The notes: generated from the letters alone by a model not told the origin. Positions 16,509 through 60,116 are shown, numbered from the stretch's first letter. The stretch is 64,000 nt of DNA from Escherichia phage vB_EcoM_P8 (PV390659.2), one strand, 5' to 3'. A program made the numbers and translations.

Positions 16509-18074
16509 TTAGATACCTTTAACATATACACGGCGGAAGTAAGCGTTTTTACCAAGGCTATTCAGAATAGAAGGCATACCGCTTTGAATGCGAGAAGCCG
16601 GAGCCTGAGCAGCGGATTCTGCAAATGGGTTGATACCGATACCGTAACGAGTTTTGAATCCCATTACTGGTTGGAAGTTCTTCGGATCGGAACCACGCAG
16701 CGGAGTCAGAGCTACATATGGAGCATAGTAAATACCAGCATCCATTTCGTTCGGACCTTTATAACCTACAGTGAAATAATCCTGTTTAGCATACTGGTCG
16801 ATATATACACGGTATTTACCACCCAGAACACCAGCAAATACTGACTTGGTAGTATCAGTGTTAAAGCCGGTAGCCAGACCCTGTGCAGCATAAGAAATGC
16901 CAGTATCAACTGAAGCCAGAACGTTAACTACGTTACGGGAAGCGATAATGAAGTTACCTTCACCACGACCGGTCTGACGAGCAATTTCAACTGCTTCTTT
17001 GTCAATCTGGAACAACAGAGCTTTAAAGGATTCACCCGCCCAGCGAGCACCACGAATATCAATCGGATCCTGGAAGTCAAATACACCAGCTTTAGAACCC
17101 GGAGTCAGGGTCATACCAGATTTACCAACCTGAGCTGAGTAGTTAATCCAATCAACAACTTCACGGTTAATTTCCAGCATGATTTCGGTAGCCAGAATAC
17201 CAGACAGTTCAGCATCAGCATCCATACCGTGAACAGCGCGGAGGTCTTGTGCTAATTCGATAGAGTAAGCAGCTTTCAGCTGACGAGATTTAGCTTCGAT
17301 AACTTGTTTATCGATACGGAAGCCCATTTCATTCCATGGGTTATCGGTAGAACCGTTGAAACCTTCCTGAAGTTCAGCGATAGAAGTAGCCATACCTTCA
17401 GCGATTTCTACCAGTACACCAGCTTCCATTTGTTTCTTAATTTCAGCATCTAATTTAGCTGCATCAGTTGCGCTTGCACTAATTGTTACTTGAGCAGAAG
17501 CCTGCAGATACACAGTACCAGTGTCCTGGAAGAAGTGAGTATAGATATCACCTACTGTGGTTTCTGTGCTAGCAGCCAGAGCCGGGAATTTCTTAGCAGC
17601 ACCCTGACCAGAGAACATTGCATCTGGACCATACATTGGGTGGAATGCTTCTTTAGCACCGGAAGCGATTGGGTCTTTACCATATACTGCACGCAGTGCG
17701 AATACCTGGCCAGTCGGGCTGTTCATCGGCTGAACACCACAAATATCGAAAGCAATCAGGTTAGGAATAGCACGACGTACCATACCCATAACAGCTGGGC
17801 CAATCTGAGTTACTGCGCCAGAAGTCTGACCAGCAGCGATGTTAGTAGCATTGTAACCGTGGTCACCACCGATTTCAGCTTCTGTTAAGAAAGAACCGAA
17901 CGCCTGAGCGATTTTTTCGTCTTTGTACTCTGGAGCTGTCTGGAAATCTTTTTCCTGGTTTTCAAAGATTTTAGCGATAATCGCTTGTTTGCTATTAGCA
18001 ATTTCCGGTAAACCTTCACCTTCCAGTAATGGCTTCCATTTGTTCAAAAGTTCAGCTTTAGTTTTGATAGTCAT
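16509..18074 (-). CDS. 23: major capsid protein gp23
   Basis: 521 aa; N-terminus MTIKTKAELLNKWKPL as in T4 gp23. Confidence 0.95.
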   Translation of the reverse strand: MTIKTKAELLNKWKPLLEGEGLPEIANSKQAIIAKIFENQEKDFQTAPEYKDEKIAQAFGSFLTEAEIGGDHGYNATNIAAGQTSGAVTQIGPAVMGMVRRAIPNLIAFDICGVQPMNSPTGQVFALRAVYGKDPIASGAKEAFHPMYGPDAMFSGQGAAKKFPALAASTETTVGDIYTHFFQDTGTVYLQASAQVTISASATDAAKLDAEIKKQMEAGVLVEIAEGMATSIAELQEGFNGSTDNPWNEMGFRIDKQVIEAKSRQLKAAYSIELAQDLRAVHGMDADAELSGILATEIMLEINREVVDWINYSAQVGKSGMTLTPGSKAGVFDFQDPIDIRGARWAGESFKALLFQIDKEAVEIARQTGRGEGNFIIASRNVVNVLASVDTGISYAAQGLATGFNTDTTKSVFAGVLGGKYRVYIDQYAKQDYFTVGYKGPNEMDAGIYYAPYVALTPLRGSDPKNFQPVMGFKTRYGIGINPFAESAAQAPASRIQSGMPSILNSLGKNAYFRRVYVKGI

Positions 18075-30897: not shown

Positions 30898-32448
30898 TTA
30901 GTAATGAATTTTAATAATATAGTTTAATGATATATTCCATGGTCTAGTTTCATAACCAATTAATCCTTCACGATTAAGTGTACCAAGGGCATCTCTCGGT
31001 CCACCCAATTCAAATCCATCATTAGTGAAGTATGAAGCATTATCCCAGTCGGCATATTTTCTAGTTCCAAGATATCCTTGATAAACGGACGCGCCAAATG
31101 GAGCTTCATGTCTTTGGTATTCTCCCCAACCACCAGCGTGTTTATGGTATGACATTTGTTGTGCCTGAACACCACCAACATGCATTCCGTCACATCCTAC
31201 ACCAAGTCTATCCTTCCCATAGCCATCTTGTCCTCGTTGATTTAAAATATGACCGCCCGTGCCAGCTCCTCTAACAAAAAGACCTCGCATATCAGGAATG
31301 CCAGGGTTATTCCAATCACCACCAAATCTCGTTCCAACTGTGTTTCTATAATCAGGATATTGATCTCCTGACACGGTTCCACCATGGCACATAATCCAAC
31401 CCGGAGGTGCTGAATCTCCCGCAAACATCATAATAGTTCCAACTGGAACCCTTTCTGACGCATATCTTTCAGTGGCAACAGGTTGATCGCCATTTTTCCA
31501 CATTCCGCCGCGCGACCAAATTCCGTTTGCTGTAAGATGGTCTAAATTTAAAGAACCATTAATAGTTTGTCCACCACGAGTATTAATTACATCTGCGTTC
31601 CATGCTAATGCACCAGAGCTATCACCTTCAGGGGCAATACCGGCTTGCGTCGTTAATTTAACTACTCCACGCATAGAACCAGTAGCTCCTCGACCATTTA
31701 GTGTTTCACCTGTTACTGCAACATCTCCTAAATTACTGTTAACTTCCGATTGTGTTCCTAAACGTATAACACCCTTATATTCTTGTGTTGCAACAGAATT
31801 CATAAAGGTATACGGAGAAATTGCATATCCTTCGCGGAGAGTTCCTTGACGAGTTTGCGCAACAGTAGATAATTGAACTACACCTCTCACAGATTCTGAT
31901 GCAGTATCTTCGGAAGGAGCTATTTGTGAAATTAATTTTATTGCAAGTTTTTGCGTTTTTAATGGAGTCATTGCCGTAGTATCATCAACTCCAGCTAAAG
32001 CTGCAGGTGTAGATGATATTTTAATAACCCCGTTTGATGACTCAGACGAATATCTATTTTGGAACACATCGTCAGTATGGTATTTCAGTTTTTGCGGCGT
32101 TATTGATGAATTATTATCTGAGCCTTCTAATGTTTCTTCATTTGTTGAATAGCGCGTTAAACCATACTTAGTTTCAGTAGCATTTGGATACAATAATCTT
32201 GTTGCTAATGTAGCTGGTGTAACGATTTTAGAATTATTAGTTCCATCTAAAACCTCTTGCTCTGACGCAATCATTGCTATTCCTTTAACTTCCATAGTTG
32301 CATCAGGAATACCATTTACGCCGATATTACTTATTTTTGATAATGCAGACTGCACTGTCGTGACAGTGTCAGGAAAATTCGATCCTACTGGATCGAATTT
32401 AACATATTTTGATTCATTTGATACGTGCTGATATGTATTGTTACTCAT
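30898..32448 (-). CDS. 12: short tail fibre gp12
   Basis: 516 aa (T4 gp12 is 527); synteny. Confidence 0.8.
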
Positions 32449-50383: not shown

Positions 50384-50456
50384 TGGGAATTAGCCAAGTT
50401 GGTAAGGCACTGGATTTTGATTCCAGGATGCAAAGGTTCGAGTCCTTTATTCCCAG
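50384..50456 (+). tRNA. tRNA-Gln (anticodon UUG)
   Basis: cloverleaf; acceptor TGGGAAT/ATTCCCA; anticodon loop ttTTGat. Confidence 0.85.
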
Positions 50457-50457
50457 C

Positions 50458-50544
50458 GCGAGAATGGTCAAATTGGTAAAGGCACAGCACTTAAAATGCT
50501 GCGGAATGATTTCCTTGTGGGTTCGAGTCCCACTTCTCGCACCA
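50458..50544 (+). tRNA. tRNA-Leu (anticodon UAA), type II
   Basis: acceptor GCGAGAA/TTCTCGC; long variable arm; CCA encoded. Confidence 0.85.
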
Positions 50545-50549
50545 AATTT

Positions 50550-50623
<74 letters not shown>

Positions 50624-50633
50624 ATTTAATTTA

Positions 50634-50707
50634 CTCCGTGTAGCTCAGTTTGGTAGAGCGCCTGATTTGGGATCAGGAGGTCCAAGGTTCAAATCCTTGT
50701 ATGGAGA
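50634..50707 (+). tRNA. tRNA-Pro (anticodon UGG)
   Basis: D-arm GCTCAGTTTGGTAGAGC; anticodon TGG; two G-U pairs in the acceptor stem; CCA not encoded. Confidence 0.8.
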
Positions 50708-50709
50708 CT

Positions 50710-50799
50710 GGAGGCGTGGCAGAGTGGTTTAATGCACCGGTCTTGAAAACCGGCAGTCGCTCCGGCGACTCATAGGTTCAAATCCTATCGCCTCCGCCA
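50710..50799 (+). tRNA. tRNA-Ser (anticodon UGA), type II
   Basis: acceptor GGAGGCG/CGCCTCC; long variable hairpin. Confidence 0.85.
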
Positions 50800-50804
50800 G
50801 TTTT

Positions 50805-50880
50805 GCTGATTTAGCTCAGTAGGTAGAGCAACTCACTTGTAATGAGAAGGTCGGCGGTTCGATTCCGTCAATCAGCACCA
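50805..50880 (+). tRNA. tRNA-Thr (anticodon UGU)
   Basis: acceptor GCTGATT/AATCAGC; anticodon loop ctTGTaa. Confidence 0.85.
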
Positions 50881-50881
50881 A

Positions 50882-50956
50882 GGCCCTGTAGCTGGAAGGT
50901 TCAAGCAAGCGACTCATAATCGTCAGATGGTGGTTCAATTCCACCCAGGGCCACCA
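50882..50956 (+). tRNA. tRNA-Ile (anticodon CAU, presumably modified)
   Basis: acceptor GGCCCTG/CAGGGCC; anticodon CAT; position after Thr as in the T4 Thr-Ile pair. Confidence 0.75.
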
Positions 50957-50969
50957 AATTAAGAATTAA

Positions 50970-51056
50970 GGGGAGTTATCCCGTAGAGGTAGCGGTGTGG
51001 ACTGTAAATCCATTGTCATTGCGACTCGGGTGGTTCGACTCCATCACTCCCCACCA
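50970..51056 (+). tRNA. tRNA-Tyr-like (anticodon GUA), type II, with an irregular D-arm
   Basis: acceptor GGGGAGT/ACTCCCC; anticodon loop CTGTAAA and variable arm resemble bacterial tRNA-Tyr; the D-arm only folds with a 4-nt linker. Confidence 0.45.
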
Positions 51057-51060
51057 ATTT

Positions 51061-51135
51061 GGATGTGTAGCTCAATGGCAGAGCGATCGCCTGTTAAGCG
51101 ATTGGTTATAGGTTCGAATCCTATCACGTCCGCCA
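51061..51135 (+). tRNA. tRNA-Asn (anticodon GUU)
   Basis: clean 75-nt cloverleaf: acceptor GGATGTG/CACGTCC, D-stem GCTC/GAGC, anticodon loop CTGTTAA, T-loop TTCGAAT, CCA encoded. Confidence 0.75.
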
Positions 51136-51139
51136 AATC

Positions 51140-51215
51140 CGAGGCATAGCTCAGAAGGAAGAGCAAGGACCTTCTAAGTCCTAGGTCGTAGGTTCGATCC
51201 CTACTGCCTCGACCA
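51140..51215 (+). tRNA. tRNA-Arg (anticodon UCU)
   Basis: acceptor CGAGGCA/TGCCTCG; anticodon loop cTTCTaa. Confidence 0.85.
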
Positions 51216-58089: not shown

Positions 58090-58629
58090 ATGAGAACATT
58101 TTTAACTGGCCCTTATCTATCCCTGATGAATGCTTTTACACACCATTCTGATGCTAGAGTAGAAGAAATTTGTAAAAACGATTATATCCCACCATTTGAA
58201 GACTTGCTTAAACAATATTGTACACTTCGACTAGATGGTGGACGTCAATCTGGTAAATCAACTGCTGTGACTAACTTTGCTGCTAATTGGCTGTATGACG
58301 GTGGAACAGTTATTGTTCTTTCTAATACTTCAGCTTACGCTAAAATTTCTGCGGGCCACATTAAAAAAGAATTTTCTCGTTATTCTGGCGATGATATTCG
58401 ATTCCGCTTATTTACCGATTCTGTCCATAGTTTTATCGGTAATAAAGGAAGCAAGTTCAGAGGTTTATCGCTTTCGCGGATTTTGTATATAATCGATGAG
58501 CCTGTTAAATCTCCTGATATGGATAAAATTTACGATATTCATATTGAAACTGTGCACCACTGTTGCAATAGTAAATGCTGCATTGGTGGTATTACTCGTC
58601 CACAGTTTTTCATAATCGGAATGCAATGA
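58090..58629 (+). CDS. P-loop NTPase-like protein with a Cys-rich C-terminus
   Basis: Walker A GGRQSGKST; Walker B-like ILYIIDEP; start taken at ATG 58090 behind GAGAGAA. Confidence 0.5.
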   Translation: MRTFLTGPYLSLMNAFTHHSDARVEEICKNDYIPPFEDLLKQYCTLRLDGGRQSGKSTAVTNFAANWLYDGGTVIVLSNTSAYAKISAGHIKKEFSRYSGDDIRFRLFTDSVHSFIGNKGSKFRGLSLSRILYIIDEPVKSPDMDKIYDIHIETVHHCCNSKCCIGGITRPQFFIIGMQ

Positions 58630-58955
58630 TGACAGACACGCAACTTTTCGAATATCTTTATTTTTCGCCAAAAACTATTAAAAATAAATTGGTGAATCAT
58701 TTTGAAATTTTGGCAAATAACAACGTCTTGAGCGAATTTTATCCTAAGCAATACAAATTACAAAAAGGCGTATTCAAAGGATGCAGAGTTTTGTGTACTG
58801 CTCCTAATGCAAGATTAATGAATAAAATTCCATATTTTACCATGGAATTTATTGATGGACCTTTTAAAGGACTAATCACCCAAAGTTTAATGGCATATGA
58901 TTCTGAGCCATTTTTAATTAAAGAGCAATCTTGGATAAATTTATTTTCTAATTGA
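58626..58955 (+). CDS. hypothetical protein, 109 aa
   Basis: ATGATGA overlap with the upstream stop. Confidence 0.5.
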
Positions 58956-58963
58956 GAGGTTAT

Positions 58964-59326
58964 ATGAAAGCATATCAAATTCTTGAAGGCACGCATAAAG
59001 GTACTATTTATTTTGAAGATGGTATTCAAGCACGAATTATTGTCTCTAAAACCTTTAAAGAGGACTCTTTTGTAGACCCGGAAATTTTCTACGGTTTGCA
59101 TGCCCGTGAAATTGAAATTGAAACACAACCTACAGTTAAAATTGAAGGTGGTCAACACCTGAACGTTAACGTTCTGCGTCGTGAAACTCTGGAAGATGCA
59201 GTTAAGCATCCGGAAAAATATCCGCAGCTGACCATCCGTGTATCCGGTTATGCAGTTCGCTTTAACTCTCTGACTCCGGAACAGCAGCGCGACGTTATCG
59301 CTCGTACCTTTACCGAGAGTCTGTAA
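58964..59326 (+). CDS. autonomous glycyl-radical cofactor (GrcA/YfiD-like; the T4 homolog is Y06I)
   Basis: C-terminus ...[59 protein letters not shown] with the RVSGY glycyl-radical motif. Confidence 0.85.
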
Positions 59327-59547
59327 TGGCAAAGATAATTATTGAAGGTTCTAAAGATGTGCTAAATGCTTTCGCCGAGTGGTTTAGTAATTCAGGCGAA
59401 CAGCAATTTAATGAAGCATGGAATATGGGTGATATTGATGGAATTTATCCTACGACAGAAATTTCTGTTCAGGGATATGGCATTCATGAACCTATTCGTT
59501 TAGTTGAATATGATTTAGGTACTGGTGAGGAAGTAAAATATGATTGA
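59326..59547 (+). CDS. hypothetical protein, 73 aa
   Basis: ORF coupled to the upstream stop. Confidence 0.45.
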   Translation: MAKIIIEGSKDVLNAFAEWFSNSGEQQFNEAWNMGDIDGIYPTTEISVQGYGIHEPIRLVEYDLGTGEEVKYD

Positions 59548-60086: not shown

Positions 60087-60116
60087 GTTTACTTTTCCTC
60101 TTGACTGTGGTATAAT
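60087..60116 (+). promoter_or_regulatory. sigma70-type early promoter upstream of regB
   Basis: GTTTAC at 60087..60092, 18-nt spacer, TGgTATAAT at 60108..60116. Confidence 0.6.

Follow-up and report, generated by a model that had tools for sequence, protein, structure and literature searches.

The vs.6 locus and its product

The window, by which we mean the whole stretch of 64,000 nucleotides analysed here from Escherichia phage vB_EcoM_P8 (PV390659.2), carries a gene block in the order lysozyme e, denV, vs.8, vs.7, vs.6, vs.5, vs.4, vs.3, regB, vs.1, vs and tk. Within this block, vs.6 occupies positions 58964..59326 of the plus strand, with the start codon ATG at 58964 and the stop codon TAA at 59324-59326, and encodes a GrcA-like phage autonomous glycyl-radical cofactor of 120 amino acids, orthologous to Y06I of phage T4. 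A Shine-Dalgarno-like GAGG, read directly from the sequence, is located at 58956..58959 (+), 4 nt 5' of the ATG. The upstream neighbour vs.7 (58626..58955, +; stop TGA at 58953-58955), which serves as a synteny marker, has coordinates carried over from the annotation of phage vB_EcoM_BMB16 and from T4. The downstream neighbour vs.5 (59326..59547, +) encodes 73 residues, and its ATG overlaps the stop codon of vs.6 in the sequence TAATG. The gene of the Escherichia phage vB_EcoM_BMB16, a Tequatrovirus, is 100% identical to the reading frame at 58964-59326, whereas T4 vs.6 shares 354 of 363 nucleotides and 118 of 120 residues with it, differing by T54P, R73H and a different tail. BMB16, which matches the window at 100%, and T4 have an identical gene order around vs.6, between vs.7 and vs.5; in T4 the gene holds the same place in the denV-regB block, shares the host-identical patch described below and is annotated in the reference genome as 'autonomous glycyl radical cofactor GrcA'.

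A promoter and terminator scan beside vs.6 gave no signal of either kind above chance, and no promoter-like site of that quality lies directly upstream of the gene, so that vs.6 appears to sit in a tightly packed polycistronic block. The total of σ70-like matches in the neighbourhood was likewise not above chance; the best of them, at 60088-60116 (+), reads TTTACT-17-TATAAT with an extended TG, fits 10 of 12 consensus positions and lies just 5' of regB (60144). A 197-residue antisense reading frame at 58739-59332 (-) covers all of vs.6; it has no support from homology or annotation and is probably spurious.

Domain search assigned the product of vs.6 to the glycyl-radical proteins. Pfam Gly_radical is the sole domain, covering residues 60-101 with 67.2 bits against a cut-off of 22.2. 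The NCBIfam model TIGR04365 ('spare_glycyl') matches residues 20-120 with 154.6 bits and so misses the equivalog cut-off of 170, an effect of the divergence of the N-terminal half; the GrcA of E. coli scores 233.9 bits on the same model. By sequence score, the phage protein belongs to a divergent GrcA subfamily and is not a canonical equivalog. It is a stand-alone glycyl-radical protein of 120 residues and ~14 kDa, in line with the small size that defines GrcA/YfiD (TIGR04365, IPR011140). Sequence matches to proteins of solved structure were obtained for GrcA (PDB 6OWR; E=4.6e-42, residues 22-120) and for residues 697-759 of PflB (PDB 1H16; E=4.8e-26), and these settle the fold. Alignment to 6OWR and to PflB 697-759, together with the position of the motif RVSGYAV, places the predicted glycyl-radical site at Gly95, encoded by the GGT codon at 59246..59248 (+), which we take to correspond to Gly102 of GrcA and Gly734 of PflB.

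Compared to E. coli GrcA (YfiD), the N-terminal half of the phage protein is seven residues shorter and weakly similar. The C-terminal residues 61-120, including RVSGYAV, are identical at 60 of 60 positions, which bears out the match of about 60 C-terminal residues that the sequence-only reading had noted. The partners of the two proteins, PflB and PflA, are presumably the same. Their genomic settings differ, in that E. coli grcA lies between ung and eamB, whereas the phage gene is part of an early/middle gene block.

Mosaic structure of vs.6 and origin of the patch

At the nucleotide level, vs.6 consists of three segments. The 5' segment of the phage lineage (58964..59141, +) comprises codons 1-59 plus 1 nt and is AT-rich. 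It is followed by a host-derived conversion patch of 172 nt or 57 codons (59142..59313, +), which is identical at 172 of 172 positions to nt 200-371 of E. coli grcA and encodes most of the glycyl-radical module (EGGQHLNV...ARTFT). The 3' tail (59314..59326, +) forms the right junction zone; here the phage gene differs from E. coli grcA at 59314 (C/T), 59317 (G/A) and 59320 (T/C), all three differences being synonymous and confined to the last 13 nt, and then ends in CTG TAA. An alignment to host grcA, proposed earlier as a check, has thus returned a perfect tract.

The composition changes along with the sequence identity. The GC content rises from 0.343 at 58964-59141 to 0.494 at 59142-59313, against 0.361 for the 64-kb window overall, and the GC of the patch falls in the top 1.1% of all 172-nt windows across the stretch. 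In parallel, GC3 rises from 0.22 to 0.45 at 59141/59142. The codons switch from CTT/TTG to six CTG for leucine, from eight ATT to ATC for isoleucine, from CGA to CGT/CGC for arginine and from CCT to three CCG for proline. Codon alignment with E. coli grcA put the breakpoint at 59141/59142 (codon 59/60), with the switch completed inside one codon. The shift in codons and GC noted from the sequence is therefore real, but it lies at 59141/59142 and not at about 59150; likewise, the host-like DNA does begin here, at 59142, but the exact host tract ends at 59313 and does not reach the stop codon as had been supposed.

The 5' half is of a different ancestry. Over its 178 nt it is identical to E. coli grcA at 67 positions (37.6%), which is near random, and it shares 73.6% identity with the gene of CC31-type phages and 71-74% with the 5' halves of other T4-like vs.6 genes. 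It still aligns with the N-terminal region of GrcA, from residue 20 in TIGR04365 and from residue 22 in 6OWR. Since both junctions lie inside the open reading frame and the 5' half is itself a homolog of the GrcA N-terminus, what took place was the internal patching of a diverged phage homolog of grcA that already existed, not a fusion to a foreign frame. The gene is chimeric, as first proposed, being a Y06I ortholog with a host-identical 3' tract; its 5' half, described there as a phage reading frame, is however not a foreign one.

On the right side, the host homology ends at the vs.6 stop codon, and the E. coli sequence 3' of the grcA stop codon is unrelated. The right junction zone (gene positions 351-360) coincides with the translation-initiation and ribosome-binding region of the overlapping vs.5. 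Among T4-type phages the tail varies at gene positions 351, 354, 357, 358 and 360, and 12 of the 13 phages compared have a G at position 354, where GAA becomes GAG and yields GAGAG.

A BLAST search against 5,426 complete E. coli genomes found nt 179-363 of the gene at 98.4% identity in the grcA of every genome, and the 5' half in none of them. Outside E. coli, exact matches to the window gene extend over no more than 77 nt in another Escherichia species and no more than 47 nt in 78 other genera; the E. coli module itself is at most 92.8% (median 85.6%) identical to that of non-Escherichia genera. With the CC31-type phage gene and E. coli grcA taken as the two parents, a three-way test of informative sites counted 71 phage-like and 7 E. 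coli-like sites in the 5' half, against 0 and 31 in the patch (Fisher p=8e-21).

The C-terminal module is near-invariant at the protein level in all phage homologs, and RB16 provides the control for what this conservation can achieve. RB16 (L096), a phage of E. coli, has the identical 60 C-terminal residues, yet its module is 82.8% identical to E. coli grcA in nucleotides, with 31 of 60 codons identical and exact runs of at most 17 nt. The window module reaches 98.3% nucleotide identity and 57 of 60 identical codons. Protein conservation is therefore insufficient to account for the patch, and the 3' half is closer to the host gene than such conservation predicts, contrary to the result that had been named as fatal to a host origin. 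Convergent codon optimisation is ruled out by the species-specific 172/172 identity.

The direction of transfer follows from the host gene. The two halves of E. coli grcA are uniform in composition (GC 0.47/0.50, GC3 0.42/0.43), and they are equally diverged (0.85-0.99) when compared with Escherichia sp., Citrobacter, Salmonella, Enterobacter and Klebsiella. Given this uniformity in both composition and divergence, the transfer went from host to phage, with E. coli grcA as the donor.

Megablast of the 64-kb window against E. coli chromosomes identified the grcA patch as the only chromosome-like stretch, the sole other match being weak and tRNA-like. Further GC-rich islands, in which 172-nt windows reach a GC of 0.494 or more, are present at 16529-16761, 17491-17944 and 31250-31543, and have no megablast match to E. 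coli genomes. The window also carries 10 tandem tRNA genes at 50384-51215 (Gln, Leu, Gly, Pro, Ser, Thr, Met/Ile-CAT, Tyr, Asn and Arg). For the tRNA-Tyr at 50966-51059, a tRNA-Tyr on plasmid NZ_CP077546 of E. coli O111:H8 shows 90.5% identity and a further 263 records show 80-90%, giving 264 plasmid places in total. T4 has eight tRNAs, so that Tyr and Asn of the window would then be extras.

Recurrence of host-derived patches across phage lineages

A search of E. coli grcA against 50,697 phage records returned about 645 genomes of the T4/T2/RB32/RB69 type, which match at 94-99.5% identity and all begin at grcA nt 200, that is, at a common left junction; the comparison of junctions among T-even phages suggested earlier thus came out uniform. 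Base-by-base alignment covered about 13 T4-type sequences, the other ~630 being known from BLAST coordinates only, and these sequences are phylogenetically non-independent. An exact-pattern scan of IMG/VR for the patch gave four loci, and the population comparison used the BLAST coordinate tables and the 13 aligned genomes instead.

Comparison of Tequatrovirus with Mosigvirus revealed 12 genus-fixed differences in the 178-nt 5' half and none in the 172-nt patch. On the 3' side of the patch there is one at gene position 360 and a further 13 in the first 60 nt downstream of the gene. Fixed differences therefore approach both edges of the patch to within 9-10 nt, the nearest on the left being at gene position 170. 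Between the two genera, synonymous divergence (pS) drops from 0.304 in the 5' half to 0.073 in the patch, which corresponds to a ratio of 0.24. In unpatched lineages the corresponding ratio of module to 5' half is 0.67-1.35, and the silent sites of the module are therefore under no intrinsic constraint. The homogenised segment coincides with the host-homologous tract to within 10 nt, as is expected from templating on the host gene and not from crossovers between phages. With fixed differences in both flanks and none in the patch, repeated events are indicated, and we conclude from these sequence comparisons that the patch was probably installed or refreshed more than once.

This conclusion has to be weighed against a single conversion from host to phage in an ancestor or one lineage of the T-even phages, followed by spread from phage to phage among Tequatrovirus and Mosigvirus during co-infection. 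Such a course would explain why the ~645 T4/T2/RB69-type records have their left junction in common and why most share a G at gene position 354 together with a T at 357, and T-even phages are known to recombine freely. The common left junction is, however, equally explained by the conserved start of the module. Differences fixed between the genera at gene positions 162, 170 (9 nt left of the patch) and 360, as well as within 11 nt 3' of the stop codon, mean that an exchange between phages would need to have moved exactly the host-homologous tract. In addition, patch copies within one genus differ from E. coli at 0 to 8 positions, and a second conversion from host to phage is demonstrable in Jiaodavirus, as set out below. 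We consider a single event with later spread unlikely and continue with repeated conversion as the preferred reading.

Patch copies with 0 differences from E. coli are present in the window, in OES_C-2 and RPN187, and in the sequences L085 and L088. The Tequatroviruses Killian (L174) and IME537 (L175) carry 6-8 substitutions within the patch, mostly private. A different donor was considered for these two; no E. coli allele exceeds 95.6% identity to them, and no other host or unpatched phage fits. Their patches look like old, decaying copies. In T4 vs.6 (L171:2558-2920), a change of CGT to CAT at gene position 218 produces R73H inside the host-derived patch, so that the Y06I protein used in biochemical work departs from GrcA within the module.

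Jiaodaviruses provide a counterpart with another host. The genes of JD18, RCIP0102, Merci and the IMG/VR contig L108 are 85-89% identical to E. coli grcA, with the left edge placed as in the T4-type phages. In an 80-genome host panel without K. pneumoniae, JD18 appeared only 90% host-like, and a K. pneumoniae chromosome from PLSDB was then added. BLAST against host grcA subsequently gave 95.4% identity to K. pneumoniae, 91.4% to K. aerogenes and ~87% to E. coli. Exact runs shared with K. pneumoniae grcA, starting at gene position 181, extend over 132 nt in Merci and 140 nt in L108. From about position 339 the Jiaodavirus genes have a phage-specific tail (TFTEAL/EAI), and their 5' halves are ~36% identical to the host gene; the informative sites divide 68/11 in one part against 3/34 in the other (p=2e-16). 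At the residue level, the Jiaodaviruses carry the Klebsiella-type LLDAVEH, whereas the T4-type phages carry the E. coli-type LEDAVKH. The pS of the patch between T4-type phages and Jiaodaviruses is 0.44, compared to 0.41 between the host genes of E. coli and K. pneumoniae. Judged by sequence, the Jiaodaviruses thus independently carry a patch derived from K. pneumoniae. Their full module is 92-94% identical to K. pneumoniae, of which a single allele was examined, and within Jiaodavirus the pS of the module is not reduced (ratio 1.24); taken together, these values make the Jiaodavirus event look older.

Some records behind this comparison have peculiarities of their own. The K. pneumoniae chromosome CP125156 (L176; 5.37 Mb) is filed in PLSDB as 'plasmid unnamed2', the grcA of K. 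aerogenes NCTC10006 is frameshifted in its record (LR134122, L177), and the vs.6 of the Jiaodavirus-like IMG/VR genome (L108:1501-1862) is 362 nt long and frameshifted, by pseudogene formation or sequencing error. Moreover, the gene of an uncultivated phage contig of ~91 kb (L103:1501-1893) matches Haemophilus grcA (L066:301-684) over a stretch of 74 nt, gene positions 307-380, at all sites but one. Its sister contig L104, which is 98% identical in the 5' part, lacks the Haemophilus-like stretch and is 79.5% identical over positions 321-393. The stretch in L103 may be a third host-derived patch.

The gene is also found, without any recent host patch, in lineages that infect the same hosts, namely RB16/RB43 (Pseudotevenvirus), RB49 (Krischvirus) and the CC31-type and KP15-type phages. 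They share the gene, its synteny and the near-identical C-terminal protein module with the window, but their modules are 72-83% identical to E. coli or K. pneumoniae with exact runs of at most 20 nt, and represent how vs.6 looks without conversion. The CC31-type modules are AT-rich and 79% identical to E. coli. The RB16-like genes are 98-100% identical to each other across isolates on E. coli, Enterobacter, Cronobacter, Klebsiella and Citrobacter. At the time of an earlier comparison, vs.6 was among the few reading frames conserved in all T4-like phages then sequenced (Nolan et al. 2006). The 40000-80000 regions of JS98 (Dhakavirus; L178) and of the Salmonella phage S16 (Gelderlandvirus; L180) have no vs.6 or GGQHLN module between vs.7/vs.8 and vs.4/regB. 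The unpatched lineages, and JS98 and S16 without the gene, indicate that the conversion is lineage-specific and not needed for a functional gene.

The contrast between patched and unpatched lineages also bears on the possibility that a whole host grcA was captured once, after which the 5' half diverged fast and the 3' half was frozen by purifying selection, with no later recombination. The near-constancy of the C-terminal module as a protein in all phage lineages and the still recognisable GrcA likeness of the 5' half would agree with it. Selection on the protein, however, cannot freeze synonymous sites, as the 57 of 60 codons here against 31 of 60 in RB16 demonstrate for one and the same protein, and in unpatched lineages the module has about the same pS as the 5' half. 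In addition, the 5' half is 74% identical to the CC31-type genes, whose modules are the AT-rich, 79% identical ones, and the switch takes place within one codon. A frozen single capture is accordingly very improbable. Even less plausible is a transfer in reverse, by which the 3' half of E. coli grcA would be of phage origin. Sequence identity by itself gives no direction, and nothing specific speaks for this course; the uniform host gene, with both halves showing the vertical pattern among Enterobacteriaceae, and the host-like composition of the patch, which within the phage stands out among the top 1% of windows by GC, speak against it. Finally, phage preparations are often contaminated by host DNA, but host reads merged into a phage contig can be dismissed as hardly conceivable, since the in-frame junction recurs in ~645 independently sequenced genomes, among them the T4, T2, RB69 and RB32 references, with phage flanks on both sides inside one reading frame and private substitutions in the phage copies.

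Altogether, vs.6 is best read as a mosaic produced by conversion with host grcA, repeated across lineages, to which we assign a probability of about 0.85 on the basis of sequence comparison. The earlier suggestion of recent or repeated recombination with host grcA holds on both counts: the patch equals the present-day E. coli allele, it is homogenised across two genera whose flanks have diverged and it has a counterpart in Jiaodavirus, all of which support recombination that was recent as well as repeated.

Possible route, function and meaning of the conversion

Codons 60-117 of an old, AT-rich phage homolog of grcA were overwritten by 172 nt of chromosomal E. coli grcA. T4 fragments the DNA of its host, and its UvsX/UvsY system for recombination and break repair is very active, so that a fragment of host grcA can become donor or template. 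The likely route, we infer, is that phage DNA and fragments of host DNA undergo homologous recombination or gene conversion during infection, for which strand invasion of the T4 UvsX type and synthesis-dependent break repair with host DNA as template are the candidate mechanisms. Both junctions lie at the edges of the only region whose similarity between phage and host gene suffices for recombination. Unconverted phage modules share identity runs of 11-17 nt with E. coli grcA, which implies that the first conversion must have been rare or must have occurred by another route. Once installed, the patch would offer more than 170 nt of perfect homology and make re-conversion easy, a ratchet that may lead towards concerted evolution with the host gene. 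The sequences indicate that the process was repeated, with Tequatrovirus and Mosigvirus converted from E. coli, separately or again, and the Jiaodaviruses independently from K. pneumoniae.

The gene and its biochemical function are already known from T4 vs.6/Y06I. YfiD/GrcA and Y06I receive a glycyl radical from the activating enzyme of pyruvate formate-lyase (PFL) and bind oxygen-cleaved PFL, which thereby becomes active again (Wagner et al. 2001, BBRC 285:456, as described in PMC8683613). By analogy with the T4 ortholog, the vs.6 product of the window would be a 14-kDa glycyl-radical domain that is activated by the host PFL-activating enzyme and docks on oxygen-cleaved host PFL; rescue of PFL, known from Y06I at a distance of two residues, may be expected of it. 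The benefit to the phage, we infer, may be that PFL keeps running in microaerobic infected cells and supplies acetyl-CoA, ATP and formate, including formate for the anaerobic reductase of the phage. Class III ribonucleotide reductase uses formate as reductant.

The recurrence of conversion with different host alleles could be adaptive or neutral. Under selectively maintained host-tracking, T-even phages would repeatedly template on the resident grcA and thereby hold the module matched in residues and codons to the current host. We put this forward tentatively, as a possibility that we regard as rather doubtful. If it were true, the docking module for host PFL and the host activase would stay fitted to the enterobacterium infected, as the alternatives LEDAVKH and LLDAVEH illustrate, and vs.6 would be a natural, quantifiable reporter of recombination from the host chromosome to a virulent phage and a record of the recent host of a lineage.

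The closest known system is that of cyanophage psbA and psbD, for which intragenic recombination between host and phage has been described with patchy %G+C and support from recombination tests (Zeidner et al. 2005; Sullivan et al. 2006, PMC1484495). In both cases a host-derived metabolic gene resides in T4-like phages and segments are exchanged between the host and phage copies, and several features that mark such mosaics were found in vs.6, namely a discontinuity inside the reading frame, a statistical breakpoint, an identified donor and direction, and an excess of identity over protein conservation. Unlike psbA and psbD, however, vs.6 has a single tract with sharp boundaries, which is 100% identical to the gene of a named host species, and its direction is unambiguous; the same module has been replaced by the alleles of their own hosts in at least two phage lineages; and the carrier is a classic coliphage that degrades host DNA. 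The host patch of vs.6 or its host-specific recurrence was not found in the literature searched, including Nolan et al. 2006, and an earlier mention in Wagner et al. 2001 or in the T4 genome review (PMC150520) is possible.

For practical work, vs.6 represents an easy experimental handle on the flux from host to phage and on its genetic requirements, and its patch is a possible marker of host history for T-even phages. Caution is advisable in annotation and in filtering for host contamination, as the filters could take the patch for host DNA. T4, the textbook virulent phage, breaks down the chromosome of its host and has hardly any DNA identity in common with it. The case is an unusually clean one in this best-studied of virulent phages, and directly testable with a marked host allele. 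A sharply bounded, host-identical tract that recurs per genus with the allele of its own host indicates that gene conversion from host to lytic phage occurs in nature, and that through it a section of a phage gene can continue to evolve concertedly with its host counterpart.
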